14,629 nucleotides of DNA from a virus, in UHGV virus genome UHGV-0103744. The stretch is one strand, 5' to 3'. Of this stretch, positions 1 through 14,629 are shown piece by piece. The notes under the pieces are model-generated. The model searched no databases and was not told the origin of the DNA. It saw only the letters and a program-made list of their open reading frames with translations. The position numbers were made by a program, and so were the translations under genes. Position 1 is the first letter of the stretch, and every line of letters starts with the position of its first letter.

Positions 1-35
1 GAAGGTCGTAGGTTCGACTCCTATTATCGGCACCA
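1..35 (+). tRNA. thrW: 3' portion of a tRNA gene (T-arm, acceptor stem, CCA end), probably tRNA-Thr thrW; left prophage junction (attL) is expected to overlap it
   Basis: Sequence gaaggtcgtaggttcgactcctattatcggcacca has a GGTTCGACTCC T-loop motif and ends in CCA; matches my memory of the thrW 3' end, a known P22 and CP4-6 integration site. The integrase stop codon lies 14 bp downstream. Window begins inside the gene, so partial. Confidence 0.75.
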
Positions 36-49
36 TTAAAATCAATAAG

Positions 50-1213
50 TTACACATCATTAGTACCTTCCTTATTTTTTGACTGGGACAAATTTGGGAC
101 CGATGGGTTTAGGATCGAGTCTATTTGCCGTGCGTGTTCGGTAAGGTGATTAGGTGCAAGGTGAGCATATCGACGAACCATTTCGATAGACTCCCAGCCT
201 CCCATTTCCTGTAACACTGACAACGGGACTCCGGCTTGAACCAGCCAACTTGCCCAAGTGTGTCTCAAGTCGTGAAATCTGAAATCATCAATACCAGCCC
301 GTCTCAGCGCCGCTTTCCAGGCTGTGTTTGCGTCATACCGCATCTTCCTGACTGTTGGCGCTTTCGTTCCGTCTGGTTTGGTACAGCTTTCCTTGTACAC
401 AAATACCCAACGGTGATGATTCCCGATTTGTTTTTTCAATACGCGACATGCAGTATCATTCAGCGCAACGCCAATTGCGCGGTTTGATTTACTCTCTTCC
501 GGGTTTATCCATGCCACCCGGCGCTGCATATCTATTTGTTGCCATTCAAGGTTGATGATGTTCGAGCGTCTTAAGCCTGTTGCCAGTGCAAATTCAACAA
601 CAGACTTTAATGGCTCCGGACATTCATCAATCAGCCTTTGTGCTTCATGGGGCTCCAGCCAGCGGATCCGTTTATTCTTTGGTTGAGGCACTTTAATAAT
701 TGGTGCCTTATCCAGCATTTTCCATTCACGCTCTGCGGCTCTTAGTAGGGCCTTTATAAATGAAAGATGCGTAGCCTTCGTTGCAACGGACGCTGGTTTT
801 GGCGTGTATTCTGGAACAGGTTTCCCTTTTTTTCTGCATGCTTCTGCCCTGAGTTTCCAGTTTTCCTCATGACGCCGGTTCGTCATTTTCTGCATTGCTG
901 AATAAATTTTTGATTCAGTGATGTCTCTTAGTTGCATCCCTGCGAAATGTTGAAGCCAGAATCCGATCCGGCTTTTGTCATCGTCCAGTGATTTCTTATG
1001 TGCTTTCTCTTCGAGCCACCTGACACACGCTTCCTCAAACGTCATATCAGGTATTTCACCAAGTTTGCTGACCCGCCATGCTTCAGCCTTTAGCTTGTCA
1101 TGGAGCTCTGTCGCCTGCCTTTTGTCCTTTGTTCCAAGAGACTGTTTAAATCTTTTACCGTTCGGCAATGTGAAACTGGCGTACCATATTTCACTTCTGC
1201 GGAAGAGTGACAT
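50..1213 (-). CDS. int: Tyrosine site-specific integrase, P22 Int-like (387 aa)
   Basis: 387-aa ORF with the C-terminal catalytic signature [39 protein letters not shown] (tyrosine recombinase R..HxxR..Y); length and sequence match my memory of P22 Int; sits next to the tRNA as expected for an attL-proximal int. Confidence 0.93.
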
Positions 1214-1440
1214 TTTCTTTCCTCTGTTATGCCATCACCCGCGCTCACCTTGATAGTATGCAGCGGAGACTGAAGCGCCGCAATGCAGGCTTGCCGTGTT
1301 GTGAGGTAAGGAGATTTTGGCTTGGTTGGATCTTTACGTGTTGCCTGTAGGCGGCCTGTTCGTATCCAGTTGGTGGCGGTTGGTCTGGATATCTTAAGAA
1401 ACTGACAGGCCTCATCGAGTGTGAGGCTGTATGATTCCAT
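1090..1440 (-). CDS. xis: Excisionase, P22 Xis-like (116 aa), overlapping the 5' end of int
   Basis: Using the internal ATG ([31 protein letters not shown]...) gives 116 aa; directly upstream of and overlapping int. The longer 126-aa ORF in the track is probably an N-terminal over-extension. Confidence 0.8.
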
Positions 1441-1690
1441 GGTTACCTCTGCTTTTTGAACGCATGTCACGTAACTTCTTAATGTGTTCTGCCGTTTCGA
1501 TCTCTTCTGCTATCCGATCTGCATCAGCTTTATTCACAGGTTCAAAGTCATGATTAAAGCGGAACATGCTGGCGATACATGTTCTGCCTTTTCGGATGTA
1601 GTGAACTTTGTTGTGGGTAGAACGCAGGATTTTGCAGGGAGTGCCGTGGTGGTCGACGTACCAGGTGTTAGGAAAAATGATTCTGAACAT
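1412..1690 (-). CDS. Hypothetical early-left (b-region-like) protein, 92 aa
   Basis: ORF with ATG start preceded by GAGGTG (reverse complement of 1691-1705) at RBS distance; same orientation as the operon and overlaps the xis start by 29 nt. No family recognised. Confidence 0.5.
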   Translation of the reverse strand: MFRIIFPNTWYVDHHGTPCKILRSTHNKVHYIRKGRTCIASMFRFNHDFEPVNKADADRIAEEIETAEHIKKLRDMRSKSRGNHGIIQPHTR

Positions 1691-1737
1691 TTTTACACCT
1701 CAGTTGGACGATGTTGAAATTTGCTGCTTTGAGGCCA

Positions 1738-1956
1738 TCACAGTCCCCATTGTTTGTTCTTAAGTTCGATCTCCTCCTGGCAACTCGCACAAGTCCGACA
1801 ACCCTGAACAGCCAGGCGTCTTCGCTCATCTATCGGATCGCCACACTCACAACAATGAGTTGCGGATACAGTCTGGTAGTTCAGACGACGCATTTTTATT
1901 GCTGTATTGCGCTGTAATTCTTCGATTTCTGATGCTGAATCAATGATGTCTGCCAT
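1738..1956 (-). CDS. TraR/DksA-family C4 zinc-finger protein (72 aa)
   Basis: Two CxxC pairs (CCECGDPIDERRRLAVQGCRTCASC) spaced as in the DksA/TraR zinc finger; phage TraR-like proteins of this size are common in lambdoid early-left regions. Confidence 0.7.
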   Translation of the reverse strand: MADIIDSASEIEELQRNTAIKMRRLNYQTVSATHCCECGDPIDERRRLAVQGCRTCASCQEEIELKNKQWGL

Positions 1957-2011
1957 CTTTCATTAATCCCTGAATTGTTGGTTAATACGCTTGAGGGTAA
2001 ATGCGAATAAT

Positions 2012-2033
2012 AAAAAAGGAGCCTGTAGCTCCC
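2012..2033 (-). terminator. Candidate intrinsic terminator on the - strand inside the leftward operon
   Basis: Perfect 5-bp stem GGAGC / GCTCC with 5-nt loop (2018-2032), followed on the - strand transcript by U6 (+ strand A6 at 2012-2017). Confidence 0.5.
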
Positions 2034-2054
2034 TGATGATTTTGCTTTTCATGT

Positions 2055-2270
2055 TCACCGTTCCTTAAAGACGCCGTTCAACATGCCGATCGCCAGGCTT
2101 AAATGAGTCGGTGTGAATCCCATCAGCGTTACCGTTTCGCGGTGCTTCTTTAGTACGCTACGGCAAATGTCATCGACGTTTTTATCCGGAAACTGCTGTC
2201 TGGCTTTTTTGATTTCAGAATTAGCCTGACGGGCAATGCTGCGAAGGGCGTTTTCTTGCTGAGGTGTCAT
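2055..2270 (-). CDS. Small lambda-like early protein (lambda orf61 region equivalent), 71 aa from internal ATG
   Basis: MTPQQENALRSIARQANSEIKKARQQFPDKNVDDICRSVLKKHRETVTLMGF... resembles, from memory, the small ORF downstream of orf63 in lambda. Start chosen at the internal ATG (2268-2270); the 93-aa version starts in the intergenic region. Confidence 0.55.
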   Translation of the reverse strand: MTPQQENALRSIARQANSEIKKARQQFPDKNVDDICRSVLKKHRETVTLMGFTPTHLSLAIGMLNGVFKER

Positions 2271-2346
2271 TGAACAAGCCCCATGTCGGCAAGCATAAGC
2301 ACACAGAATATGAAGCCCGCTGCCAGAAAAATGCATTCAGTGGTTG

Positions 2347-2538
2347 TCATACCTGGTCTCTCTCATCTGCTTCTGCTTTCGCCACCATCATTTCCAGCTT
2401 TTGTGAAAGGGATGTGGCTAACGTATGAAATTCTTCGTCTGTTTCTACTGGTATTGGCACAAACCTGACTCCAATTTGAGCAAGGCTATGTGCCATCTCA
2501 ATACTCGTTCTTAACTCAACAGGAGATGCTTTGTGCAT
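2347..2538 (-). CDS. Lambda orf63-like small protein (63 aa)
   Basis: 63 aa; strong RBS (GGGAGG) upstream of the ATG on the - strand; sequence and position (just after the orf60a-like gene) match my memory of lambda orf63. Confidence 0.65.
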   Translation of the reverse strand: MHKASPVELRTSIEMAHSLAQIGVRFVPIPVETDEEFHTLATSLSQKLEMMVAKAEADERDQV

Positions 2539-2699
2539 ACCGCCTCCCGTTTATTATTTATCTTCTCAGCCAGCCGCTGTGCTTTCAGTGGATTTCTGAT
2601 AACAGAAAGGCCGGGAAATACCCAGCCTCGCTTTGTAACGGAGTAGACGAAAGTGATCGCGCCTACCCGGATATTATCGTGAGGATGCGTCATCGCCAT
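2511..2699 (-). CDS. Lambda orf60a-like small protein (62 aa)
   Basis: [50 protein letters not shown]... immediately downstream of exo with start overlapping the exo stop, as for lambda orf60a. Confidence 0.65.
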
Positions 2700-3370
2700 T
2701 GCTCCCCAAATACAAAACCAATTTCAGCCAGTGCCTCGTCCATTTTTTCGATGAACTCCGGCACCATCTCGTCAAAACTCGCCATGTACTTTTCATTCCG
2801 CTCAATCACGACATAATGCAGGCCTTCACGCTTCATGCGCGGGTCATAGTTGGCAAAGTACCAGGCATCTTTTCGCGTCACCCACATGCTGTACTGCACC
2901 TGGGCCATGTAAGCCGATTTTATTGCCTCGAAACCACCGAGCCGGAATTTCATGAAATCCCGGGAGGTAAACGGGCATTTCAGTTCAAGGCCGTTGCCGT
3001 CACTGCATAAACCATCGGGAGAGCAGGCGGTGCGCATATTTTCGTCGCGATAGATGATCGGGGATTCAGTAATATTCACGCCGGAAGTGAATTCAAACAG
3101 GGTTCTGGCGTCGTTCTCGTACTGTTTTCCCCAGGCCAGCGCCTTAGCATTAACTTCCGGAGCCACACCGGTGCAAACCTCAGCCAGCAGGGTGTGGAAG
3201 TAGGACATTTTCATGTCAGGCCACTTCTTTCCTGAGCGGGGCTTTGCTATCACGTTGTGAACTTCTGAAGCGGTGATGACGCCGAGCCGTAATTTGTGCC
3301 ATGCATCATCCCCCTGTTCGACAACTCTCACGTCGATCCCGGTACGCTGCAGGATAATGTCCGGTGTCAT
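2690..3370 (-). CDS. exo: Lambda-type 5'-3' exonuclease Exo (Red alpha), 226 aa
   Basis: Near-identical over its full length to lambda Exo as I remember it ([15 protein letters not shown]...GFVFGEQWR); start overlaps the bet stop (ATGA-type coupling). Confidence 0.95.
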
Positions 3371-4152
3371 GCTGCCACCTTCTGCTCAGTGGCTTTCTGT
3401 TTAAGGAATCCAAGAGCTTTCACTGCTTCGGCCTGTGTCAGTTCTGACGATGCGCGAATGTCGCGGCGAAATATCTGGGAACAGAGCGGCAATAAGTCGT
3501 CATCCCATGTTTTATCCAGGGCGATCAGCAGAGTGTTAATCTCCTGCATGGTTTCATCGTTAACCGGAGTGATGTCGCGTTCCGGCTGACGTTCTGCAGT
3601 GTATGCAGTATTTTCGACAATGCGCTCGGCTTCATCCTTGTCATAGATACCAGCAAATCCGAAGGCCAGACGGGCACACTGAATCATGGCTTTATGCCGT
3701 AACATCCGTTTGGGATGCGACTGCCACGGCCCCGTGATTTCTCTGCCTTCGCGGGTTTTGAATGGTTCGCGGCGGCATTCATCCATCCACTCGGTAACGC
3801 AGATCGGATGATTGCGGTCTTTGCGGTAAATCCGGCATGTGCAGGATTCGTTGTCCTGTTCAAAGTCCATGCCGTCAAACTGCTGGTTTTCGTTGATGAT
3901 GCGGGACCAGCCATCAACGCCCACCACCGGAACGATGCCGTTCTGCTTATCAGGGAAGGCGTAAATTTCTTTCGTCCACGGATTAAGGCCGTACTGGTTG
4001 GCGACGATCAACAATGCGATGAACTGCGCATCGCTGGCATCACCTTTAAATGCCGTCTGGCGAAGAGTGGTGATCAGTTCCTGTGGGTTGACAGAATCCA
4101 TGCCGACACGTTCAGCCAGCTTCCCAGCCAGCGTTGCGAGTGCTGTACTCAT
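3367..4152 (-). CDS. bet: Lambda-type single-strand annealing protein Bet (Red beta), 261 aa
   Basis: 261 aa, [66 protein letters not shown]... matches lambda Bet; lies between gam and exo. Confidence 0.95.
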
Positions 4153-4157
4153 CCGTT

Positions 4158-4454
4158 TTATACCTCTGAATCAATATCAACCTGGTGGTGAGCAATGGTT
4201 TCAACCATGTACCGGATGTGTTCTGCCATGCGCTCCTGAAACTCAACATCGTCATCAAACGCACGGGTAATGGCTTTTTTGCTGGCCCCGTGACGTTGCA
4301 AATGATCGATGCAGAGTGATTCAAACAGGTGCTGGGGCAGACCTTTTTCCATGTCGTCTGCCAGTTCTGCCTCTTTCTCTTCACGGGCGATCTGCTGGTA
4401 GTGACGCGCCCAGCTCTGAGCCTCAAGACGATCCTGAATGTAATAAGCGTTCAT
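4158..4454 (-). CDS. gam: RecBCD inhibitor Gam (GamS form, 98 aa)
   Basis: [60 protein letters not shown]... matches lambda GamS; 5 bp upstream of bet. Confidence 0.9.
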
Positions 4455-4529
4455 GGCTGAACTCCTGAAAATGGCTGTGAAAATATCGCCCGCGAAATGC
4501 CAGGCTGATTAGGAAAACAGGAAAGGGGA

Positions 4530-4820
4530 TTAGTGATTCAGGCCGTTACCGCGTCCGTCGAGAAAAACTTCCACGAGCAAATCACGGGTATAAGTGCGCT
4601 CGATGCCGCGATGCAGATATAGCCGTCCGCGTAAATTAGCTGATGCAGTCCAGGTACCATCTTTGTGTTTGACCAGCATTCCTGGCATGACCGCACCTCG
4701 ATTAACGGTCTGCGTTCCATAATGTTGATGAACCATAAAAACTCCTGCCCGTAAGCTGGGCTGCTGAACATATAGAGACTTCTGCGCGTATTCAGGCGGT
4801 GGATGGCCGCCGGTTGTCAT
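4530..4820 (-). CDS. Hypothetical PL-proximal protein (96 aa from the first ATG; the 136-aa ORF in the track begins at a TTG)
   Basis: GC-rich ORF occupying the first-gene position of the leftward operon (where N/cIII/kil sit in lambda) but with no recognisable similarity to N, cIII or Kil. The annotated 4940 start is a TTG; the first ATG (4818-4820) has GAGG about 10 nt upstream. The true start is uncertain. Confidence 0.4.
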
Positions 4821-4999
4821 AACTAAGTCGCCTCGTTGAAGCGACTGAGGTATGAAGTGTTGAGTTGATTTCAGCTGGTCACACCGACGTTCACGCGTCC
4901 GCTTCACCCCTCGCACTCCCCGGAGCCTGCTGAAATTCAAGCTGCGGATCTAAGCGGTCATCGCAACGGTGAATCAGGTGATTGCCGTATCGTTGTGTT

Positions 5000-5090
5000 G
5001 TTGCGATGAATTCATTTAAAACTATAGTTGTTTTATCGTCAACAACAAAAGTTGTTTTATTGGTTGTTTTAGATATAACTGGTTGTATTT
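5000..5090 (-). promoter_or_regulatory. OL/PL-like leftward promoter with repeated repressor operator half-sites
   Basis: On the - strand: TTGTTGACG (-35; + coords 5037-5042), 17-bp spacer, TAAATG (-10; 5013-5018). The spacer (aaaacaactatagtttt, 5018-5034) is 16/17 identical to the PR spacer. Further AACAAC/GTTGTT-containing repeats at 5041-5058, 5061-5070 and 5077-5090. Confidence 0.6.
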
Positions 5091-5180
5091 AGGATGGATT
5101 TATTTTGTGACTTGCATCGCATAGCGATAACCGAAGCGGGGTTGTGGTGGTTTTTTGAACGGTGTGTGATGAGGGGAGGC

Positions 5181-5208
5181 AAAAGAAAACCCGGCACGAC
5201 GGCCGGGG
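5181..5208 (-). terminator. Intrinsic terminator ending the repressor-proximal (cI + 287-aa gene) transcription unit
   Basis: On the - strand, GC-rich hairpin CCCGGC-cgtcgt-GCCGGG (5190-5207) followed by UUUUCUUUU (+ strand 5181-5189); begins 4 bp downstream of the 287-aa ORF stop. Confidence 0.7.
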
Positions 5209-5211
5209 AAA

Positions 5212-6075
5212 TCATTTCGCATCTACAATAAATAACCTGTTTATCTGGCCTTTTTTAACAGTAGCCTTTGCGGTTATAGTGAATACTGCAGATGGATCAC
5301 CTTTGGTTGATATATATGCACTAAGAGCTCTAATATACGGGTTATTCTTCTTTCCTGCAGCTGGATCGCTAATTTCAGCAGTGATTCTCTTTTTTGAGTC
5401 ATCACCATCTAAAATTATTTTAGCTGTCATATTTTGTGCATCAAATTCTGTAAGAAAAGCACGATACTCACGAAGACCGAGAACTTCATCATCATCAAGC
5501 CTATCAATTTCAGCTTTATCTCTCTCGTTAACTTTTAGAAGGCAGCCGTCAACATTTGTTGCAACACTTATCTGATCGCAAGTATTACCAATAGGTGATA
5601 CTGCCTGCCTTACAGAGGGGCGAAGCTCTACAGCCATTCGGTCAATCAAAGAGATCAACTTATCAATGGTTCCAGCATCCTTGTTTCCTAGTGCCTCTAT
5701 GGCCTTTTCAAGTGACTGCTGCAAAGCTTTCATTTCATCTTTCTTGTTAGAATTTCTCGCAAAAATATATTGTAGTATTGCGCCAAGTATAGTTGCGGCG
5801 ATCCCCGAGAACAACTGGTTCTGAGTGGCGAAGTTAAGAACTGCTTCAAGAGTAAAGCAGTTAGCTTTTGCTTCGCGTGCGTAAACCTTAACTTCCTGAT
5901 AATTAATGTATTTACTATATTTTTGTGTAACAGAGAAAGAAGCTGCTGTTGAGAGAACTTTAGAAAAACCCTTTAGGGATTCTCCTAGGCAGTTCAAATC
6001 TATTTCATGATTTAAAGCATCTTTTCCGTCATACCTAAAAGAGATTTTTATATCCTGTAAAGCGTCACAATCCAT
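5212..6075 (-). CDS. Orphan 287-aa protein in the rexAB-equivalent slot (downstream of and co-oriented with cI); one predicted hydrophobic helix; function unknown
   Basis: Long uninterrupted ORF; visibly AT-rich relative to flanking phage genes; lies between the cI stop (6142) and a strong terminator (5181-5208); hydrophobic segment [19 protein letters not shown] followed by a charged, helical-looking region. No family recognised. Confidence 0.7.
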
Positions 6076-6141
6076 AAATCGCTCTCGTCTAATTCTAATT
6101 AAATTTACTATCCCCTAAACGACTCATCAGCACAGTACTGA

Positions 6142-6831
6142 TTATCCATGTTTCCTGTACGTCTGGGGCATGCTCCCAATAACCTTACCGAAGATGAACA
6201 CCCGGTTCATCTCGTCTTTCTCGATCGGGTCCCACGGTGAGTAGCTCTTGTTATCAGAGATAACCAGCAGCTTATCCTTCATCATTTGCAGGCGCTTTAC
6301 ATGGGCGGTGTCGTCGTACAGAAACGCATAGATGCCATCACCGTCGAAAGATTTAACCGTGATATCAACGAACAGCAGATCACCTGGTTCGATCGTTCCT
6401 GACATGCTGTCACCACGCACGTTAATGATGCGGATATTTTCTGCCTTCCTACCATCGAACATGTGACGAGCATCGTCAAACGAGTACTCAACCGAGCGTA
6501 GAACTTCTACAAACTCACGGTTGATGACTCCCGGCCCGGCACTCACTTCTATATCAAGAACGTCAATCTTAAAGTATTTGGAATGGCTGACAGTTGATTG
6601 TATTGGTTGCACTGTACTGTCTGACATATTTCCAACGCCAGAAGATAACCATTCTGCGCGCACACCCAAAGCGTTCGCGATCTCCACGATTTTAGTTGTT
6701 TGGTTAGCTTTCCCTGTTTCGATTTTCTGAATAGCAGCTTGGCTAACCCCGACCAAATCCCCAAGCGCCTTTTGTGTAAGGCCTCGCGCTAATCTGGCTT
6801 CTTTAAGTCTTTCTGAGAGTGTTGTTTTCAT
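6142..6831 (-). CDS. cI: CI-type prophage repressor: N-terminal HTH (XRE family), C-terminal LexA/S24 autopeptidase domain
   Basis: HTH region LTQKALGDLVGVSQAAIQKIETG; S24 signature GDSMSGT (catalytic Ser) and downstream Lys (VKRL). Divergent from the cro-like gene across an operator-rich 104-bp region. Start taken at MKTTL (6829-6831), because the longer 251-aa ORF would begin inside the PR operator. Confidence 0.85.
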   Translation of the reverse strand: MKTTLSERLKEARLARGLTQKALGDLVGVSQAAIQKIETGKANQTTKIVEIANALGVRAEWLSSGVGNMSDSTVQPIQSTVSHSKYFKIDVLDIEVSAGPGVINREFVEVLRSVEYSFDDARHMFDGRKAENIRIINVRGDSMSGTIEPGDLLFVDITVKSFDGDGIYAFLYDDTAHVKRLQMMKDKLLVISDNKSYSPWDPIEKDEMNRVFIFGKVIGSMPQTYRKHG

Positions 6832-6935
6832 AGTCCAAATGTACAACCAAGGTTTTATTTCATCAAACGAAAATGGTTGTTGACTAAAAACAACCATAGT
6901 TTTAATCTTGATTCAAATTAACCACGGAGGTTGTT
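6832..6935 (+). promoter_or_regulatory. OR region: PR promoter, operator repeats and presumably PRM on the opposite strand
   Basis: TTGACT (-35; 6880-6885), 17-bp spacer, TAATCT (-10; 6903-6908), then GGAGG RBS before the cro-like ATG at 6936. Operator-like repeats: acaaccaaggtttt (6843-6856), inverted repeat atggttgtt / aacaaccat (6873-6881 / 6889-6897), and aaaacaaccatagtttt (6887-6903). Confidence 0.7.
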
Positions 6936-7166
6936 ATGAACCCAGCTATCAAAACAGCGATCAATATCGTTGGTTCACAAAAGAAACTGGGCGCTGCCTG
7001 CGAAGTTTCACAGCAGGCCGTCTATAAGTGGCTTCACAACAAAGCAAAGGTATCCCCTGAACATGTCGGCAGCATTGTTACGGCTACTGGTGGAGTAGTG
7101 AAGGCATACCAGATTCGCCCGGATCTTCCGAAGTTGTTTCCACACACCGAAAAGAACGCAGCTTAA
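6936..7166 (+). CDS. Cro-like HTH regulator of the YdaS type (76 aa)
   Basis: Small HTH protein (GSQKKLGAACEVSQQAVYKWLHN) transcribed divergently from cI off PR; resembles Rac YdaS-type Cro analogues from memory. Confidence 0.75.
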   Translation: MNPAIKTAINIVGSQKKLGAACEVSQQAVYKWLHNKAKVSPEHVGSIVTATGGVVKAYQIRPDLPKLFPHTEKNAA

Positions 7167-7235
7167 ATTTCCATTTCACGCTCTTTAACAATAAGCAATC
7201 AACTTAACAGTCAATTCAAACTAAAGGAGTCAATT

Positions 7236-7775
7236 ATGCAACAACTTATATACCAACAGACTAGCGGATTTAGCCCGACTGCGGTGATAAATCGTTCTCA
7301 AACAAAACAGGTGCCAGGCCACGAAAAAATCCGTGATGCCGTCCGCGCCTGGTCGGCTGAAGATAATCAGGATGTCGTTGCCACACTCATTGTGAATGAG
7401 TATCGGGAGCAGGGCGGCGGCACCATCGATTTCCCTGATGATGTCAGCCGTGCACGCCAGAAGCTGTTCCGCTTCCTTGATAACAAATTCGATTCTGAAA
7501 AATACCGAAATAACGTGCGTGAACTGACCCCGGCAATTCTGGCGGTACTACCGCTGGAATATCGCGGCCACCTGGTTGAGCAGGATATCTTCATGGCTCG
7601 GCTGGCTGAAATGGAAAAGGAACTCAGTGAGGCAAAGCAGGCGGTCATTCTCAACGCCCCACGCCACCAGAAACTGAAGGAGATGAGTGAAGGCATTGTG
7701 TCGATGTTTCGAGTGGACCCGGATCTGGCTGGTCCATTGATGGCGATGGTCACCACCATGCTGGGGGCAATATGA
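7236..7775 (+). CDS. YdaT-like protein in the cII position (179 aa)
   Basis: Strong RBS AAGGAG; motifs IRDAVRAW, QKLFRFLDNKFD and LTPAILAVLPLEYR parallel those I recall in Rac YdaT (PF06254-type); the gene order cro-like then ydaT-like is conserved with Rac. Confidence 0.6.
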   Translation: MQQLIYQQTSGFSPTAVINRSQTKQVPGHEKIRDAVRAWSAEDNQDVVATLIVNEYREQGGGTIDFPDDVSRARQKLFRFLDNKFDSEKYRNNVRELTPAILAVLPLEYRGHLVEQDIFMARLAEMEKELSEAKQAVILNAPRHQKLKEMSEGIVSMFRVDPDLAGPLMAMVTTMLGAI

Positions 7776-7861
7776 CAGGTTCAAAAATGGCGAAAGTCGG
7801 TCTGCGGGAACAGAACCGACTTTCAGGTGCAAATCGTAACACACTCATTGCGGGAGGAATT

Positions 7862-8791
7862 ATGGCAAACACTGCTGAGATATTCAATTTTCCTGTGCCG
7901 GATGCGGCACAAAAGGAGCCGCGCGTGGCAGATCTCGATGATGGTTATACGCGCATTGCAAATGAGTTGCTGGAAGCTGTAATGCTGGCCGGATTAACAC
8001 AGCACCAGCTTCTGGTCTTCCTGGCTGTCATGCGCAAAACATATGGCTTTAATAAAAAACTGGATTGGGTGAGCAACGAGCAACTTTCCGAGTTGACCGG
8101 GATATTGCCGCACAAGTGTTCTGCTGCAAAAAGTGCTCTGGTAAAGCGTGGGATTTTTATTCAGAGCGGGCGGAATATAGGCATTAATAATGTGGTCAGT
8201 GAATGGTCAACATTACCCGAATCAGGTAAGAAAAATAAAGTTTACCTGAAAGAGGTAAATTTACCTGAATCAGGTAAGAAAAGTTTACCCAAATCAGGTA
8301 AAGGCACTTACCCGAATCAGGTAAACACAAAAGACAAACTAACAAAAGACAATATAAAACCTTATTCGTCCGAGAATTCTGGCGAATCCTCTGACCAGCC
8401 AGAAAACGATCTTCCTGTGGTGAAACCGGATGCTGCAATTCAGAGCGGCAGCAAGTGGGGGACAGCAGAAGACCTGACCGCCGCAGAGTGGATGTTTGAC
8501 ATGGTGAAGACCATCGCGCCATCAGCCAGAAAACCGAATTTTGCAGGGTGGGCTAACGATATCCGCCTGATGCGTGAACGTGACGGACGTAACCACCGCG
8601 ATATGTGTGTACTGTTCCGCTGGGCATGCCAGGACAACTTCTGGTCCGGTAACGTGCTAAGTCCGGCCAAACTCCGCGACAAGTGGACCCAACTCGAAAT
8701 CAACCGTAACAAGCAACAGGCTGGCGTGACAGCCGGAAAATCAAAACTCGACCTGACAAACACTGACTGGATTTACGGGGTGGATTTATGA
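7862..8791 (+). CDS. O: Replication initiator O (lambda O-like), ori iterons embedded in the coding sequence
   Basis: N-terminal domain VADLDDGYTRIANELLEAVMLAGLTQHQLLVFLAVMRKTYGFNK... parallels lambda O; contains an iteron-encoded linker (LPESGKK repeats) and is followed by an overlapping P gene. Start taken at the ATG with GGAGG RBS (7862); the track's 7772 start is probably an over-extension. Confidence 0.85.
   Translation: MANTAEIFNFPVPDAAQKEPRVADLDDGYTRIANELLEAVMLAGLTQHQLLVFLAVMRKTYGFNKKLDWVSNEQLSELTGILPHKCSAAKSALVKRGIFIQSGRNIGINNVVSEWSTLPESGKKNKVYLKEVNLPESGKKSLPKSGKGTYPNQVNTKDKLTKDNIKPYSSENSGESSDQPENDLPVVKPDAAIQSGSKWGTAEDLTAAEWMFDMVKTIAPSARKPNFAGWANDIRLMRERDGRNHRDMCVLFRWACQDNFWSGNVLSPAKLRDKWTQLEINRNKQQAGVTAGKSKLDLTNTDWIYGVDL
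8213..8360. repeat. Origin of replication: five 17-bp palindromic iterons plus an adjacent A-rich tract
   Basis: TTACCCGAATCAGGTAA (8213-8229), TTACCTGAAAGAGGTAA (8242-8258, degenerate), TTACCTGAATCAGGTAA (8261-8277), TTACCCAAATCAGGTAA (8285-8301), TTACCCGAATCAGGTAA (8308-8324); followed by acaaaagacaaactaacaaaagacaatataaaacc. Same layout as lambda ori inside O. Confidence 0.8.
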
Positions 8792-9489
8792 AAAACATCG
8801 CCGCACAGATGGTTAACTTTGACCGTGAGCAGATGCGCCGGATCGCCAACAACATGCCGGAACAGTACGACGAAAAGCCGCAGGTACAACAGGTAGCGCA
8901 GATCATCAATGGTGTGTTCAGCCAGTTACTGGCAACTTTCCCGGCGAGCCTGGCTAACCGGGACCAGAACGAACTGAACGAAATCCGCCGCCAGTGGGTT
9001 CTGGCTTTCCGGGAAAACGGGATCACCACGATGGAACAGGTTAACGCAGGAATGCGCGTAGCCCGTCGGCAGAATCGACCATTCCTGCCATCACCCGGGC
9101 AGTTTGTTGCCTGGTGCCGGGAAGAAGCATCCGTTACCGCCGGGCTGCCAAACGCCAGCGAGCTGGTTGATATGGTTTACGAGTATTGCCGGAAGCGTGG
9201 CCTGTATCCGGACGCAGAGTCTTATCCATGGAAATCAAACGCGCACTACTGGCTGGTTACCAACCTGTACCAGAACATGCGGGCCAATGCGCTTACTGAT
9301 GCGGAATTACGGCGCAAGGCTGCCGATGAACTGTCCTGTATGACCGCGCGAATTAACCGTGGTGAGGCGATACCTGAACCAGTAAAACAGCTTCCTGTCA
9401 TGGGCGGTAGACCTCTAAATCGTGCACAGGCTCTGGCGAAGATCGCAGAAATCAAAGCTAAGTTTGGGCTGAAAGGAGCAAGTGTATGA
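8788..9489 (+). CDS. P: Replication protein P (DnaB helicase loader), 233 aa
   Basis: Essentially matches lambda P as I remember it over the full 233 aa (MKNIAAQMVNFDREQMRRIANNMPEQYDEKPQ...); start overlaps the O stop. Confidence 0.93.
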   Translation: MKNIAAQMVNFDREQMRRIANNMPEQYDEKPQVQQVAQIINGVFSQLLATFPASLANRDQNELNEIRRQWVLAFRENGITTMEQVNAGMRVARRQNRPFLPSPGQFVAWCREEASVTAGLPNASELVDMVYEYCRKRGLYPDAESYPWKSNAHYWLVTNLYQNMRANALTDAELRRKAADELSCMTARINRGEAIPEPVKQLPVMGGRPLNRAQALAKIAEIKAKFGLKGASV

Positions 9490-9779
9490 CGGGCAAAGAG
9501 GCAATTATTTATTACCTGGGGACGCATAAGAGCTTCTGTGCGCAGGACGTTGCCGCGGTAACAGGCGCAACAGTAACCAGCATAAATCAGGCTGCGGCTA
9601 AAATGGCGCGGACAGGAATCTTAGTTATTGATGGTAAGGTCTGGCGAACGGTGTATTACCGGTTCGCTACCAGGGAAGAACGGGAAGGAAAGGTGAGCAC
9701 GAATCTGATTTTCAAGGAGTGTCGCCAGAGTGCCGCGATGAAGCGGGTGTTGGCATTTTATCGCGGCAATTTTCAATAG
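9486..9779 (+). CDS. ren: Ren-like protein (97 aa)
   Basis: MTGKEAIIYYLGTHKSFCAQDVAAVTGATVTSINQAAAKMARTGILVIDGKVWRTVYYRFATREEREGK... matches lambda Ren from memory; start overlaps the P stop. Confidence 0.85.
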   Translation: MTGKEAIIYYLGTHKSFCAQDVAAVTGATVTSINQAAAKMARTGILVIDGKVWRTVYYRFATREEREGKVSTNLIFKECRQSAAMKRVLAFYRGNFQ

Positions 9780-9815
9780 ACTATGTACATAAAAATATCA
9801 TTTTTTAATACATGT

Positions 9816-10007
9816 CTAATTATTGGACGAAATTGGTTTTTGCTTTGGTTTAGTTAGCCTAGCAATCAAGCCAGAGGCAATAATGATGATCCAAGCAATT
9901 TGATGCAATGCTACTCCAATATAAGAACCTTTATAGATAATAAAGGCATAGATCGCTAGAAACGAAATAAATATCCATAACGAAAGTTGATAAATTTTGG
10001 CGCGCAT
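9816..10007 (-). CDS. Possible small hydrophobic membrane protein (63 aa from first ATG), opposite strand, in AT-rich cargo
   Basis: Two hydrophobic stretches (LSLWIFISFLAIYAFIIY and IAWIIIIASGLIA); AT-rich context; the track start (10022) is a TTG and no convincing RBS is seen, so this may not be a real gene. Confidence 0.3.
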   Translation of the reverse strand: MRAKIYQLSLWIFISFLAIYAFIIYKGSYIGVALHQIAWIIIIASGLIARLTKPKQKPISSNN

Positions 10008-10263
10008 ATTTAATCCAATCAATCAGAAAGACGAGTAATCATAGAGGTACTATCACCCGGGTAACTATTGCTATTATGAACGGATAGGATAGAGGCTTCA
10101 ATAACATATGCATCAAGTATGATGGAATATGTAGATGAAAATGACTTGTGTCAAATTTGTGGAAATGAGTACCATGTTTCTCTGAAATTGATGTCGTTAA
10201 TGGCTAGTGATAGTGAACTTTTTTACTTTATAATTCCTTTGGTTATAACAATAAGGTAAATTT

Positions 10264-10824
10264 ATGAAGAAGATAATATTATTAGCCATGATTATTGGTT
10301 CTTTAACAGGTTGCGCTAGTGTGCCACCATTGAATTTTTCAACACCTAACGTGGGAGTTAGCCAGAAAAAAATAGATGCTGAAATTAAGTCATTAACGGT
10401 ATCACTTGCTCGTCCAGATGAGCAGAAAGGGGATATCACTGCTGGTATGGAGGCTATAACTCCAATTTGGCGTGAATCTTTGCAGGAAGCACTCGACCGA
10501 ATGACTATTTTTCGTGATAGTTCACCAAATACGGTTAGCTTAAATGTTAAAGTGTTGGCTCTTGACGTTCCTGCTTTTGGTGTTTCAATGACAACTAAAG
10601 CAATTGCAAGGTATGAAATAATCAACCGTGCGAATGGTGATATTATATATACGCAGGATATTGAGTCTACCGGCACTGTTCCAGCCAGTTACGCATTCTA
10701 CGGTATTGTTCGAGCACGCGAATCTGTTAATCGCGCGGTGCAAAACAACATAACGCAGTTCTTGCAAGCATTAGAAAGTGTTGATCTTTCTCGTCCAATG
10801 TTTCCTGTTAGGGTAGCTAAATGA
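10264..10824 (+). CDS. Predicted lipoprotein (186 aa), cargo gene 1
   Basis: Signal peptide with lipobox MKKIILLAMIIGSLTG-C; AT-rich codon usage; stop overlaps the start of the next lipoprotein gene (ATGA). No family recognised. Confidence 0.7.
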   Translation: MKKIILLAMIIGSLTGCASVPPLNFSTPNVGVSQKKIDAEIKSLTVSLARPDEQKGDITAGMEAITPIWRESLQEALDRMTIFRDSSPNTVSLNVKVLALDVPAFGVSMTTKAIARYEIINRANGDIIYTQDIESTGTVPASYAFYGIVRARESVNRAVQNNITQFLQALESVDLSRPMFPVRVAK

Positions 10825-11273
10825 AGCGATTATTCGTAATTGCTCCACTCTTAGTGTTGGTTGGATGCGCACAAAATATATCGCCAAATAGTTATTCTGT
10901 TGGCTCTGTGGGCATGGTTAATCGAACTATCGCTGGTACAGTTATTAGTGCCAGGGGGGTTGATATCAGTGGGACTTCCGCGTTAGGCGGGACTGCTGGG
11001 GCTGCCGTGGGGGCAACCGCTGGTTCTGCGCTTGGTGGGGGAGTTCGTTCTAATATCGTTGGTGCCGTTGGTGGTGCAGTCATTGGTGGTATTGCCGGGG
11101 CAGCAATCGAATCTTCAGCAACAAAACAAACAGGCATGGAATATGTTGTCGAAACTGAGAATGGGAATTTAATGACCATTGTTCAAGGCAAAGATCCGTT
11201 ATTTACTCAAGGAAGTAAGGTCCTTGTTTTATACGGAAACCCTTCTCGCATAATAACAGACCCGCGTCACTAA
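10821..11273 (+). CDS. Predicted glycine-zipper lipoprotein (150 aa; SlyB/Pcp-like architecture), cargo gene 2
   Basis: Lipobox MKRLFVIAPLLVLVG-C; long Gly/Ala-rich zipper GTSALGGTAGAAVGATAGSALGGGVRSNIVGAVGGAVIGGIAGAAI typical of Gly-zipper outer-membrane lipoproteins; translationally coupled to the upstream gene. Confidence 0.7.
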   Translation: MKRLFVIAPLLVLVGCAQNISPNSYSVGSVGMVNRTIAGTVISARGVDISGTSALGGTAGAAVGATAGSALGGGVRSNIVGAVGGAVIGGIAGAAIESSATKQTGMEYVVETENGNLMTIVQGKDPLFTQGSKVLVLYGNPSRIITDPRH

Positions 11274-11313
11274 CATACCTTTTGATTTTGTAAAATCAAT
11301 TCGTAATAATAAA

Positions 11314-11342
11314 GTCATCGGAGCTTGAACAACTCCGGTGAC
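11314..11342. terminator. Long hairpin after the lipoprotein pair; candidate (possibly bidirectional) terminator
   Basis: 10-bp stem gtcatcggag / ctccggtgac (one G-U) with 9-nt loop; flanked by an A-rich tract on the + strand upstream (T-rich on the - strand) but with no T-tract on the + strand downstream, so + strand termination efficiency is doubtful. Confidence 0.35.
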
Positions 11343-11463
11343 TTCTGCGCTAAACGGGGACGTTTATGCGCACATACAATCCAAACTCTCTTCTCCCTTC
11401 ACAGATGCAGAAATGCACCTGCGATTTTTTGTATCCTGCGTTTGACCTCTGCGGAGGTGAAGC

Positions 11464-11919
11464 GTGAACCTCCCACAAGACGGCATCAAATTACATCGCG
11501 GCAACTTCACCGCTATCGGCCAGCAGATCCAGCCTTATCTGGAGGACGGAAAATGCTTTCGCATGGTGCTTAAACCGTGGCGCGAGAGACGCAGTCTTTC
11601 CCAGAATGCACTCAGCCACATGTGGTACAGCGAAATCAGTGAATACCTCATCAGCAGGGGTAAAACGTTCGCCACTCCAGCTTGGGTAAAAGATGCTCTC
11701 AAACACACATATCTCGGTTATGAAACCAAAGACCTGGTTGATGTCGTAACCGGTGATATCACCACTATCCAGTCGTTACGCCATACCTCCGATCTTGATA
11801 CCGGAGAGATGTATGTCTTCCTGTGTAAGGTTGAAGCCTGGGCGATGAATATTGGCTGCCACCTGACTATTCCGCCGAGCTGCGAGTTCCAGCTGCTGCG
11901 CGATAAGCAGGAGGCGTAA
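11464..11919 (+). CDS. ybcN: YbcN-like DUF1367 protein in the ninB position (151 aa, GTG start)
   Basis: Matches my memory of DLP12 YbcN ([19 protein letters not shown]...[20 protein letters not shown]...); GGAGGTG RBS before the GTG; followed by ninE, ybcO and rusA in DLP12 order. Confidence 0.7.
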
Positions 11920-12089
11920 TGGCTACACCGCTTATTCGTGTCATGAACGGACACATCTACAGAGTACCAAATCGTCGTAAGCGTAAACCTGAGCTGAAGC
12001 CATCCGAAATACCAACACTGCTCGGATATACCGCCAGCTTGGTTGATAAAAAATGGTTGCGACTGGCAGCAAGGAGGAGTCATGGCTGA
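11919..12089 (+). CDS. ninE: NinE-like small protein (56 aa); not in the supplied ORF track because it is under 60 aa
   Basis: My own translation from the ATG at 11919 (overlapping the ybcN TAA): [56 protein letters not shown]; matches my memory of DLP12 NinE; overlaps the ybcO start. Confidence 0.65.
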   Translation: MATPLIRVMNGHIYRVPNRRKRKPELKPSEIPTLLGYTASLVDKKWLRLAARRSHG

Positions 12090-12372
12090 TTTGAGAAAAG
12101 CAGCGCGTGGTCGGGAATGCCAGGTAAGAATCCCTGGCGTATGTAATGGCAACCCTGAAACGTCTGTACTGGCACATATCCGGCTGACTGGATTGTGCGG
12201 CACCGGTACGAAACCGCCAGACCTGATTGCCACCATTGCATGTTCTGCCTGCCACGACGAAATCGACCGCCGCACGCATTTTGTTGACGCTGGATATGCA
12301 AAAGAATGCGCGCTGGAAGGTATGGCGAGAACGCAGGTTATCTGGCTGAAAGAGGGGGTAATTAAGGCGTGA
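12082..12372 (+). CDS. ybcO: YbcO-like DUF1364 protein (96 aa), Cys/His-rich putative metal-binding nuclease
   Basis: [62 protein letters not shown]... with AGGAGG RBS; the track's longer 109-aa ORF is probably an over-extension. Confidence 0.8.
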
Positions 12373-12731
12373 ATACTTACCACATCACACTACCCTGGCC
12401 TCCGAGCAATAATCGCTATTACCGCCATAATCGCGGGCGCACGCACGTCAGCGCAGAGGGGCAGGCATACCGCGATAACGTCGCCCGAATCATTAAAAAC
12501 GCAATGCTGGATATCGGCCTGGCTATGCCTGTGAAAATCCGTATTGAGTGCCACATGCCGGATCGCCGTCGCCGTGACCTGGATAATCTGCAAAAAGCCG
12601 CTTTTGACGCACTCACCAAAGCAGGTTTCTGGCTGGATGATGTTCAGGTCGTTGATTACCGTGTTGTGAAGATGCCCGTTACCAAAGGTGGGAAGCTGGA
12701 GCTGACCATCACTGAACTGGGGAATGAATGA
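12369..12731 (+). CDS. rusA: Holliday junction resolvase RusA (120 aa)
   Basis: Near-identical to E. coli RusA as I recall it ([41 protein letters not shown]...[22 protein letters not shown]..); GTG start overlapping the ybcO stop. Confidence 0.93.
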
Positions 12732-12868
12732 TGTTTGAGTCTTATATGGCAGAACGTCTTCGCCACCGCTGGATGCGCCTGCGCTTATATCGTTTCCCCG
12801 GTTCTGTTTTGACCGATTACCGGATACTGAAGAATTACGCCAAAACACTGAAAGGAGCTGCCGCATGA
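12728..12868 (+). CDS. ylcG: YlcG-like small protein (46 aa); not in the supplied ORF track
   Basis: My own translation: [46 protein letters not shown]; overlaps the rusA stop and the Q start (ATGA); same position as DLP12 ylcG. Confidence 0.6.
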
Positions 12869-13554
12869 ATACCCAATATTTACAGTATGTCCGCGAGCAA
12901 CTCATTGTGGCTACTGCTGATTTGAGCGGAGCAACGAAAGGCCAGCTTGAAGCCTGGCTGGAGCATGCACAATTTGATACTGGTACATATAAACGAAAGA
13001 AGCCGCGCATTCTGGATGAGGTAACGGGCAAGATGATTACGCTGGATAATCCGCCGATTTCCGGTAAACAGTCGTACGCAAAAGGTTCATCTGTCGCCCT
13101 GATCAGTCCGGTCGAGTTTTCAACCTCTTCATGGCGCCGCGCTGTTCTGTCTCTCGATGAGCATCAGAAAGCATGGTTGCTGTGGAGTTACAGTGAAAAT
13201 ATTCGCTGGGAGCATCAGGTTGCCATAACGCAGTGGGCATGGAGCGAGTTTAAGACTCTGTTGGGTACCAGAAAAATTGCAGGTAAGACACTGGAACGCC
13301 TGAAGAAGTTGATCTGGCTGGCGGCACAGGATGTGAAGAGCGAACTGGCAGGGCGTGAGGCTTATGAATACCAGGAACTGGCGTCACTGGTGGGAGTGAC
13401 ATCAAAAAACTGGTCTGAGACATTCACTGAACGCTGGGTTGCAATGAAGCACATTTTTCTACAGCTTGATAGCGAAGCTTTATTGCTTCTAACGAGAACA
13501 CGTTCAAAACAAAAGGCGACATTTTCACAGCAAAATATTGCAAAACTGGATTAA
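12865..13554 (+). CDS. Late-gene antiterminator Q-like protein (229 aa)
   Basis: Position (last gene before the PR'/tR'-like region and lysis genes) and size fit the larger Q family of lambdoid prophages; sequence is not lambda Q. Assignment is positional plus weak family recall. Confidence 0.55.
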   Translation: MNTQYLQYVREQLIVATADLSGATKGQLEAWLEHAQFDTGTYKRKKPRILDEVTGKMITLDNPPISGKQSYAKGSSVALISPVEFSTSSWRRAVLSLDEHQKAWLLWSYSENIRWEHQVAITQWAWSEFKTLLGTRKIAGKTLERLKKLIWLAAQDVKSELAGREAYEYQELASLVGVTSKNWSETFTERWVAMKHIFLQLDSEALLLLTRTRSKQKATFSQQNIAKLD

Positions 13555-13735
13555 AAAGCATATATTTCATATAAATCTGATATTTTGCCAATGTTGTACG
13601 CACTGGCAGTAATCCAAATTCAAGCTCGAGGTTTAAAGCCTTGGGCTTTTCTGTTTCTGGGCGGTGAGTATCCTTCCAACGTACCCCAGCCAGGGTGTCT
13701 TCAGCTGTTGAGTTGATATTGCTTAACCCTCTGTT

Positions 13736-13760
13736 GCCAGCTACATGCTGGCTTTTTTAT
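13736..13760 (+). terminator. tR'-like intrinsic terminator between Q and the lysis genes
   Basis: Hairpin GCCAGC-tacat-GCTGGC (13736-13752) followed by TTTTTTATT; located in the 310-bp Q-holin intergenic region where lambdoid phages carry PR', qut and tR'. Confidence 0.65.
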
Positions 13761-13863
13761 TCCAGGCTTGCGGGGAGCATCAACTCCGTGCTTTGTCGTT
13801 AAATTACCCCGTGAGCCTGATTTCTGACATTTAACGTCCCGGCCTTTTGTCGGCGGCGAAACA

Positions 13864-14181
13864 TTGGCTATTCATATGCACGAAAAAGAGAGCCTTGCCG
13901 GAGCGTTCTGGCTCGTTTTGCTGATCATCGCAGGTTGGGGCGGTCTGGTCCGCTACCTGATAGATGTGAAGCAGAGCAAGGCAACATGGAGCTTGATCAA
14001 TGCTCTTGCCCAAATGGTGGTTTCAGGGTTTACCGGCGTTATTGCTGGCCTGGTGAGCATTGAAAGCGGACTGAGCATTTACATGATTCTGGCAACCGCG
14101 GGGATAAGCGGAGCGATGGGCTCCGTAGCGTTGACCTATTTCTGGGAACGTCTGACGGGGATTAAAGATGCAAATCAGTAA
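13864..14181 (+). CDS. S: Holin, lambda S / P22 gp13 family (105 aa), possible dual-start motif
   Basis: Three hydrophobic segments (FWLVLLIIAGWGG; MVVSGFTGVIAGLV; IYMILATAGISGAMGSVAL), charged C-terminal tail ending KDANQ like P22 gp13; two Met codons at residues 1 and 5 (MAIHMHEK); immediately upstream of and overlapping the endolysin. Confidence 0.75.
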   Translation: MAIHMHEKESLAGAFWLVLLIIAGWGGLVRYLIDVKQSKATWSLINALAQMVVSGFTGVIAGLVSIESGLSIYMILATAGISGAMGSVALTYFWERLTGIKDANQ

Positions 14182-14617
14182 TAACGGTATTGCGCTGATT
14201 AAGCGATTTGAGGGTTGCAGGTTAACTGCATATCCCGACCCGGGCACCGGCGGTGGTCCCTGGACGATTGGCTACGGCTGGACGGGGAAAGTAGACGGAA
14301 AGCCTATCAAGCCCGGAATGAAGATTGACGACGCAACGGCGGATCGCCTGCTGCGCACTGGCGTGGTGAGCTTTGACCAGGCGGTAAGCAAGATGCTCAA
14401 GGTCTCCGTTACCCAGAACCAGTATGACGCGCTTGTGTCGCTGGCCTACAACATCGGTACGCGAGCGTTATCTACATCAACGCTGATGAAGAAGCTGAAT
14501 GCAGGTGATGTGAAAGGTGCCGCTGACGCATTCTTGAGCTGGAACCGTTCAGGCGGCAAGGTAATGGCTGGCCTCACCAATCGTCGCAAGGCAGAGCGGG
14601 AAGTCTTTTTATCGTGA
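14168..14617 (+). CDS. R: Endolysin, GH24 T4/P22-type lysozyme (149 aa)
   Basis: N-terminal catalytic region IALIKRFEGCRLTAYPDP...TIGYGWTG and ending REVFLS closely parallel P22 gp19 lysozyme from memory. Confidence 0.9.
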   Translation: MQISNNGIALIKRFEGCRLTAYPDPGTGGGPWTIGYGWTGKVDGKPIKPGMKIDDATADRLLRTGVVSFDQAVSKMLKVSVTQNQYDALVSLAYNIGTRALSTSTLMKKLNAGDVKGAADAFLSWNRSGGKVMAGLTNRRKAEREVFLS

Positions 14618-14629
14618 ACACGGGGAACC

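Follow-up and report, generated by a model that had tools for sequence, protein, structure and literature searches.

UHGV virus genome UHGV-0103744 was analyzed over a window of 14,629 nucleotides (nt; the whole stretch of DNA examined), in which we determined the gene content and the module boundaries of a probable lambdoid prophage of Escherichia coli. The open reading frame (ORF) map and family assignments gave about 30 genes in classical lambdoid order (Table 1), namely att-int-xis, recombination genes, repressor, cro and cII equivalents, replication genes, nin region, Q, and lysis genes, collinear with the lambdoid layout. Annotated relatives have the same gene order, and in all annotated E. 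coli relatives the element adjoins proA and tRNA-Thr. An earlier interpretation made from the sequence without database searches (the sequence-only reading) had proposed that this early region is built of modules with differing closest classical references. When lambda, P22, Rac, and DLP12 were compared with the window by blastn and tblastn, the per-module identities agreed with this proposal.

Table 1 Features of the 14,629-nt window and recurrent ends of homology with relatives (aa, amino acids).
Feature	Positions	Strand	Basis or remark
tRNA-Thr (thrW) 3′ end, att core	1..35	+	identical to P22 attP core, SfI attP, and E. coli S1 thrW 3′ end
tyrosine integrase, P22/SfI type	50..1213	-	89.9% protein identity to P22 Int, 387 aa
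excisionase, P22 type	1090..1440	-	88% protein identity to P22 Xis; Pfam HTH_17
DUF4222 gene	1412..1690	-	Pfam DUF4222, 1.9e-19
lambda-type left-arm block	1738..4454	-	96.8% DNA identity to lambda over 1761-4536
orf73, TraR-like	1738-1956	-	lambda-type block
orf61-like	2055-2336	-	lambda-type block
orf63	2347-2538	-	lambda-type block
orf60a	2511-2699	-	lambda-type block
exo	2690-3370	-	97.3% protein identity to lambda
bet	3367-4152	-	99.2% protein identity to lambda
gam	4158-4454	-	98.0% protein identity to lambda
KilR-type FtsZ inhibitor, 68 aa	4530..4737	-	NCBIfam PRK11354, 6.6e-17; phrog_294 Kil
pL/oL region	5010..5075	-	motif TTGTTGAC-N-AAAACAAC-N-ATAGTTTTAA; inverted repeats I1, I3, I7
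intrinsic terminator after cI-cargo operon	5190..5207	-	6-bp all-GC stem, then T-rich tail
cargo 1, DUF7946+DUF7947 protein, 287 aa	5212..6075	-	Pfam 1e-54 and 1.4e-18
cI-type repressor, 229 aa from second ATG	6142..6831	-	Pfam HTH_3 + Peptidase_S24, LexA-like
oR/pR, 25-bp palindrome ATGGTTGTTGACTAAAAACAACCAT overlapping promoter	6873..6905	+	sequence inspection
Cro equivalent, YdaS family, 76 aa	6936..7166	+	Pfam YdaS_toxin 4.1e-17
CII equivalent, YdaT family, 179 aa	7236..7775	+	Pfam YdaT_toxin 9.7e-30; phrog_163, CII-like
replication initiator O, 309 aa from M31	7862..8791	+	N-terminal domain not lambda's, C-terminal lambda-type
ori iterons, five copies of TTACCYGAATCAGGTAA inside O	8213..8329	+	repeat families D1, D2; inverted repeats I1-I8
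lambda-type P	8788-9489	+	98.3% protein identity to lambda
ren	9486-9779	+	89% protein identity to lambda
cargo 2 cassette, GC 0.40	9755..11279	+	between ren and nin block
68-aa ORF, two hydrophobic segments	9816-10022	-	hydropathy
186-aa lipoprotein, lipobox LTGC	10264-10824	+	translation
150-aa SlyB-like lipoprotein, lipobox LVGC, glycine zipper	10821-11273	+	SlyB (PDB 7ojf) E 1.3e-14
perfect palindrome TTGATTTTGTAAAATCAA	11282..11299	+	overlaps -35 element annotated in phage 82
nin block, phage 82/DLP12 type	11366..12868	+	96.5% DNA identity to DLP12 over 11280-12869
ylcH	11366-11467	+	nin block
ybcN	11464-11919	+	nin block
ninE	11919-12089	+	nin block
ybcO	12082-12372	+	nin block
rusA	12369-12731	+	nin block
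ylcG	12728-12868	+	nin block
late antiterminator Q, phage 82 type	12865..13554	+	95.2% protein identity to phage 82 Q; Pfam Phage_antiter_Q 1.4e-96
candidate late promoter/terminator region (pR′/tR′)	13538..13790	+	consensus scans
holin, LydA family	13876..14181	+	Pfam Phage_holin_3_3, 1.2e-20
GH24 endolysin, 149 aa, Klebsiella-prophage allele	14168..14617	+	Pfam Phage_lysozyme 6.7e-46
breakpoint	2350/2536		orf63 vs adenine methylase
breakpoint	5207/6141-6143		cargo 1 slot
breakpoint	9752-9761/11277-11294		cargo 2 slot
breakpoint	12869		Q type changes
breakpoint	about 14000-14174		lysis genes

The integration module was found as claimed from the sequence: P22-type int and xis (90% and 88% protein identity) abut the end of a thrW-like tRNA gene, and the att core is identical to that of P22. 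ARAGORN detected no tRNA in the window because the window start cuts the thrW gene. DNA identity to P22 was 80.6% over 1-1457, and the Shigella phage SfI, which has the same att core, was closer, with 98.5% over 1-2252 by blastn and about 98-100% in a 200-nt identity profile. The exact integrase protein occurred in 5293 blocks of public assemblies, with proA-thrW in all six places listed. The adjoining DUF4222 gene had no tblastn match in lambda, P22, Rac, or DLP12; it is common to SfI and E. coli thrW prophages, with 98-100% DNA identity to SfI and relatives. Beyond the integration module, only the GH24 endolysin family (47% identity) is common to P22 and the window, and P22 erf/abc, gene 24, c2/cro/c1, and genes 18/12, 23, and 13 are absent.

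The proteins of the left-arm block are 87% to 99% identical to their lambda counterparts, and the 96.8% DNA identity bears out the proposed closeness of exo, bet, gam, and orf60a/orf63 to lambda. Lambda DNA homology ends at 4536, beyond gam. The kil position is filled by a protein 35% identical to Rac KilR, and tblastn with lambda kil and P22 kil gave no match to the window. The functional gene order is that of lambda, and besides the orf73-to-gam segment the C-terminal half of O, P, and ren are shared with it, whereas lambda int/xis, N, cIII, kil, sieB, ral, rexAB, cI, cro, cII, ninB-I, Q, S, and R are absent from the window; tblastn with lambda N, cIII, kil, ea10, ral, and sieB found no match.

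In the immunity region, the repressor was 24-25% identical to P22 C2 and had no match to lambda cI or RacR. The next two genes encode members of the YdaS and YdaT families, which are Cro and CII equivalents (PMC5917428, PMC9986795). The YdaS-family protein was 30% identical to Rac YdaS and matched a Cro structure (PDB 3bd1, E 7e-4), and the YdaT-family protein was 36% identical to Rac YdaT and matched CP-933P YdaT (PDB 8bt1, E 1e-3). The region from cI through cro to ydaT (6143-7775) shared 96.6-98% DNA identity with five isolated, plaque-forming phages. The sequence-only reading had described these regulators as being as in Rac. The families do occupy the cro and cII positions, but the identities are 30-36%, Rac showed no DNA match to the window by blastn, and the repressor is not RacR; derivation of the regulators from Rac was rejected on these grounds. 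Rac (racR-ydaS-ydaT, kilR) has the same families in the cro, cII, and kil positions and likewise lacks an N gene; it carries the racR repressor and ydaU/ydaV, whereas the window carries a LexA-like S24 repressor and lambda-type O and P replication. Judged from these comparisons, the term Rac-type holds at the family level only, for YdaS, YdaT, and KilR.

The candidate promoters pL (about 5044-5017, minus strand) and pR (about 6877-6905, plus strand) share the 30-nt operator/promoter motif listed for pL in Table 1, with GTTGTT/AACAAC half-sites. Between pL and kil there is no N or cIII gene, and tblastn with lambda N, lambda cIII, P22 24, and P22 c3 was negative (E<=1 for lambda N and P22 gp24). 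A search of the window against Rfam at E<=0.1 gave no match, with no known put, nut, or OOP-type RNA. The predicted fold of the pL leader (4738-5012) was not significant (z = -1.4), and a put-like RNA in this leader was dropped on that value. DNA matches to HK022 were limited to three segments of 50-183 nt with 68-90% identity, all of them away from pL and pR. Lambdoid phages without N have already been described (PMC12315714). A boxA-like sequence, CGCTCTTTAAC, follows the cro equivalent at 7181-7191, and the stretches downstream of pL and of pR have in common two short sequences, CGCAGCTTRAATTTC and AATCAACTYAACA, which keep their relative order.

Hybrid O proteins, in which the N-terminal half is specific for the origin and the C-terminal half for P, are classical among these phages. 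The O protein of the window was 67% identical to lambda O overall; its C-terminal part was near-identical, and its N-terminal origin-binding domain was clearly more diverged. The five iterons TTACCYGAATCAGGTAA differ from those of lambda. Lambda DNA identity resumes at 8325 (94.6% over 8325-9754), and this O-internal junction sits directly after the last iteron. The prediction of lambda-like O, P, and ren thus stands for P, ren, and the C-terminal half of O, but not for the O N-terminal domain and the iterons.

Nin blocks carrying rusA that are common to DLP12 and phage 82 are classical (record X92588). The genes ybcN-ninE-ybcO-rusA-ylcG follow in the window in the DLP12 order that had been recognized from the sequence, at the DNA identity given in Table 1, and the nin proteins were 85% to 100% identical to those of DLP12. 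This block continues into Q82: phage 82 X92588 matched 11280-13554 at 95.9% over its entire 2275 nt, Q included, with orf33/ylcH, orf151/ybcN, ninE, orf96/ybcO, rus, orf45/ylcG, and Q82 collinear with the window. DLP12 has the same genes up to ylcG, followed by quuD, nmpC, and essD/rrrD without counterparts in the window, and its lysozyme is a distant match (36%) to the window lysozyme. The Q protein had no match to lambda Q, P22 gp23, or DLP12 QuuD. Phage 82 is therefore a better reference than DLP12 for the nin-Q block, because the window has no match to DLP12 quuD. Downstream of Q, consensus matches indicated a promoter-like site at 13538-13566 and terminator-like hairpins at 13622-13648, 13736-13752, and 13769-13790.

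The lysis genes had been likened to those of P22. The holin belongs to a different Pfam family from P22 gp13 and lambda S, both of which are Phage_holin_3_1, and gave no BLASTP alignment with either even at E<=100; a P22-like holin was rejected on this basis. The likeness survives for the endolysin, which falls in the gp19 family, yet identity to P22 gp19 was 47% over 149 aa (E 6e-41) and the closest DNA is that of Klebsiella prophages; this points to membership of the same family, not to derivation from P22. The exact endolysin protein occurred in 1,232 blocks of public assemblies, and all ten listed places were lambdoid-type prophage contexts. Site-by-site comparison showed the holin gene to be an intragenic recombinant: up to 13947 it has the allele of E. 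coli thrW prophages, and from 13977 a Klebsiella-prophage allele, so that the crossover lies within 13948-13976, 29 nt that are identical in both alleles. From 13977 to the window end, including the holin 3′ half and endolysin, the DNA was 100% identical to K. pneumoniae CP159144 (last 650 nt; 14000-14629). The phage vB_Kpn_RAH1 was 88-89% identical over the holin 3′ half and endolysin, and upstream of 13947 the identity of Klebsiella elements was about 68-74%, where they were related at all. Two other assemblies, from other samples, contain exactly this 101-aa hybrid holin together with a lys149-type lysozyme, and one of these metagenome contigs, L028, has the same crossover point with its own downstream substitutions. 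The holin crossover may document a recent exchange between Escherichia and Klebsiella phages.

Breakpoints were defined as recurrent ends of homology in blastn comparisons with nine relatives (Table 1). The module junctions had been expected to coincide with the two cargo insertions. Four of them do, but at least five lie elsewhere, at 1457/1461, at 1761, 4536, and 8325 (the ends of homology with lambda and SfI), and at 13948-13976, and two of these are inside genes (8325 in O and 13948-13976 in the holin). The thrW prophages S1, AR_452, PEC408, and VG1046-3E9 and the phages PhiR47_2, PhiR26_1, PhiR5_1, PhiR34_1, and IdasGreatGrand have the same backbone, with shared segments 94-100% identical: P22-type int at thrW in the prophages, Red, KilR-type kil, cI/YdaS/YdaT, hybrid O, P, ren, phage-82-type nin-Q, and LydA-type holin. 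The window differs from them in the variable-slot cassettes, the holin 3′ half, and the endolysin allele. In the 200-nt identity profile, 100% stretches extended over most of 1-2600 in VG1046, over 4601-9600 in PEC408, and over 9801-11400 in S1 and AR_452. Such alternating 100% blocks are characteristic of recent exchange by homology within a single lineage of prophages.

We take the window to be the attL-to-endolysin half of a lambdoid prophage in E. coli thrW, downstream of proA, with a probability of about 90%. Nothing in the data contradicts a lambdoid assignment. Read by analogy with lambda biology, the gene content, identities, and breakpoints observed in the window would fit the following transcription pattern and recombination mechanism. 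The thrW 3′ end would be the substrate of the P22/SfI-type integrase and excisionase. Leftward transcription from pL would express the KilR-type division inhibitor, gam, bet, exo, and small accessory genes, in an operon with no N or cIII, and the LexA-like cI would be co-transcribed with one accessory gene up to the terminator. A rightward operon from pR would comprise the YdaS Cro, YdaT CII, hybrid O, P, ren, the lipoprotein cassette, the nin genes, and Q82, followed by the LydA-type holin and GH24 endolysin. In such a circuit, cI would repress pL and pR, the YdaS-like protein may take the part of Cro and the YdaT-like protein that of CII, O would bind its own iterons and recruit DnaB via the lambda-type P, and Q82 would antiterminate late transcription into the holin and endolysin genes. 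The patchwork itself was probably built up as co-resident lambdoid phages recombined repeatedly, by homology, with one another and with incoming ones; the crossovers fall in conserved sequence flanking interchangeable cassettes and in some cases within genes, where short stretches are identical or domains meet.

Several points weigh against this interpretation. Window positions 3876-14629 coincide, at 100% identity, with the final 10,754 nt of a metagenome contig in the European Nucleotide Archive (ERZ1303607 NODE_698; 36,635 nt), so that the window forms the 3′ end of this contig. The contig has a coverage of only 3.9x and stops, like the window, 12 nt past the endolysin stop codon. The late genes lie outside the window; the last junction is backed by two other metagenome contigs only and by no isolate genome; and no early antitermination mechanism was identified, there being no N, no Rfam match, and no significant pL-leader fold. 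The low coverage and the position of the window at the end of that contig would suit a chimeric metagenome assembly, in which related E. coli prophages and a Klebsiella prophage end were joined through shared k-mers, as would the long 100% blocks that alternate between isolates and the final 650 nt at 100% identity to K. pneumoniae prophages, reached by a switch in a 29-nt identical stretch. However, all junctions up to 13947 are spanned by isolates (VG1046 over 1-9761 except for an IS1 insertion, PEC408 over 2546-9761, and AR_452 over 6142-14174), both cargo cassettes are present in E. coli S1, the exact hybrid holin recurs in the two other assemblies described above, and the ERZ1303607 contig is recorded in 3 samples. 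We therefore consider a chimera unlikely.

It is far less probable still that the window represents no new combination but a phage or prophage already described, such as SfI, PhiR47_2, or a Lambda_ev phage. Megablast with the whole window gave matches in 5,416 of 5,426 complete genomes of E. coli as well as 436 phage records, with no full-length collinear record among them. SfI matched 1-2252, 2536-4536, and 8325-9754 at 96-98.5%, PhiR47_2 matched 1461-5207, 6143-9752, and 11281-14174 at 94-97%, and the same immunity type is present in five isolated phages. Nevertheless, the top phage record, PhiR47_2, covered 70% of the window (96.4% identity), and the top complete genome, E. coli S1, covered 92% in four pieces (97.2% identity); SfI carries lambda-type immunity with N and rexAB, and PhiR47_2 differs from the window in integrase, in the cargo of both slots, and in endolysin. 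A single known phage collinear with the window had been named as the finding that would speak against a new mosaic; with coverage of at most 70% for phages and at most 92% for complete E. coli genomes, identity of the whole window with a described phage was rejected. The combination is thus new, but weakly so, since the backbone at thrW recurs in 16 complete E. coli genomes (at least 80% window coverage), the immunity region is found in the five isolated phages, and no junction up to 13947 lacks an isolate genome that spans it.

All backbone modules of the thrW prophage are already in databases at 94-100% identity. The present combination of cassettes is absent from the collections searched; the phenomenon is ordinary and the backbone known. 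Modular mosaicism of lambdoid phages is textbook matter, through Botstein's modular theory and the comparative work of Hendrix and Casjens. Lambdoid mosaicism and the hotspot downstream of cI have already been described (PMC12315714 and PMC8585504, the latter citing Degnan et al. 2007), and mosaic lambdoid genomes are restated in PMC12315714 and PMC9986795. The mosaic itself therefore adds little, as one more case of recombination-driven modular lambdoid architecture; its practical value is a clean map of where exchange takes place in a thrW prophage lineage that is very common in E. coli. The cargo genes, not the mosaic, merit experimental attention: both variable slots carry known or candidate defence genes in sister prophages, and uncharacterized genes in the window.

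The cargo 1 cassette (5208-6141) has a GC content of 0.38 and the cargo 2 cassette one of 0.40, compared with 0.47-0.53 in the flanks. Cargo 1 occupies the rexAB position directly downstream of cI, its slot being bounded by the cI stop codon and the terminator at 5190-5207. Homology with six of the nine relatives stops at 5207. The cI-to-N interval, the site of rexAB and bstA, has been described as a hotspot of mosaic diversity (PMC8585504, citing Degnan et al. 2007). The cargo 1 protein was found at full length in 77 E. coli genomes. In Morganella and Vitreoscilla prophages, homologs with 49-53% identity directly follow an S24 repressor gene, the Vitreoscilla one adjoining a SIR2_2 gene, and a Serratia homolog is located in an island beside an Abi_2 gene. 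In sister E. coli prophages the same slot contains HipA+DUF3037, GevAT, SIR2_2, a BamE-like lipoprotein, or nothing. In the AlphaFold model (predicted local distance difference test score, pLDDT, 76), the N-terminal part is helical and includes one hydrophobic 19-mer, and the C-terminal part forms a beta-barrel, for which Foldseek returned sub-threshold OB-fold matches alone (best E 0.013). A PDB sequence search gave no match, PADLOC gave a marginal one (PDC-S42, E 5e-4), and a literature search on DUF7946 and GevT found nothing useful and no described function of a DUF7946+DUF7947 protein.

Since the DUF7946+DUF7947 gene lies directly downstream of cI and has its own terminator, it would be expressed in the lysogen. 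We tentatively suggest, at somewhat less than even odds, that it encodes an uncharacterized single-gene superinfection-exclusion or abortive-infection protein. In favour of such a role are the position behind S24 repressors, which is kept in otherwise unrelated prophages of Escherichia, Morganella, and Vitreoscilla, and the swapping with known defence or toxin cassettes (HipA+DUF3037, GevAT, SIR2) in sister prophages; the hydrophobic segment and the C-terminal barrel, which in the predicted model weakly resembles OB folds, may also speak for it. A defence or exclusion role of this putative effector is plausible.

The cargo 2 slot is bounded by the ren 3′ end and by a promoter-like palindrome ahead of ylcH. 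In 280 complete E. coli genomes the cassette is full length, shares at least 99% identity with that of the window, and invariably adjoins ren. The 186-aa lipoprotein had no family match outside PHROGs, and PADLOC gave no match in cargo 2. In sister prophages, this ren-to-nin slot contains SIR2, NACHT, PD-lambda-1, or emrE-ybcK. The palindrome TTGATTTTGTAAAATCAA stands exactly where homology among relatives resumes past cargo 2 and recurred in nine retrieved loci, those of phage 82 and DLP12 among them, with conserved half-sites and a variable spacer. It fits TTGATT-N6-AATCAA, for which the chance expectation is about 0.001 sites in the window, and this pattern is the operator consensus of CP-933P YdaT (PMC9986795). 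Between the cro and ydaT equivalents there was no good match to the CP-933P consensus, and the sole perfect copy is the one at the nin-block edge. A link between the palindrome and YdaT would be tentative at most, because the YdaT of the window matches the CP-933P protein weakly (E 1e-3).

Further variation was noted among the relatives. A small variable slot at 2350-2536, between orf61 and orf60a, holds orf63 (DUF1382) in the window, lambda, S1, and VG1046, and an N6-adenine methyltransferase gene in AR_452, PEC408, OW1E2, and ANT. In S1, ren is split by an outer-membrane protein gene (12949-13677 of its locus), and truncation has removed the part of the prophage past the holin. A DUF3800 gene separates Q from the holin in PEC408 (16793-17596 of its locus).

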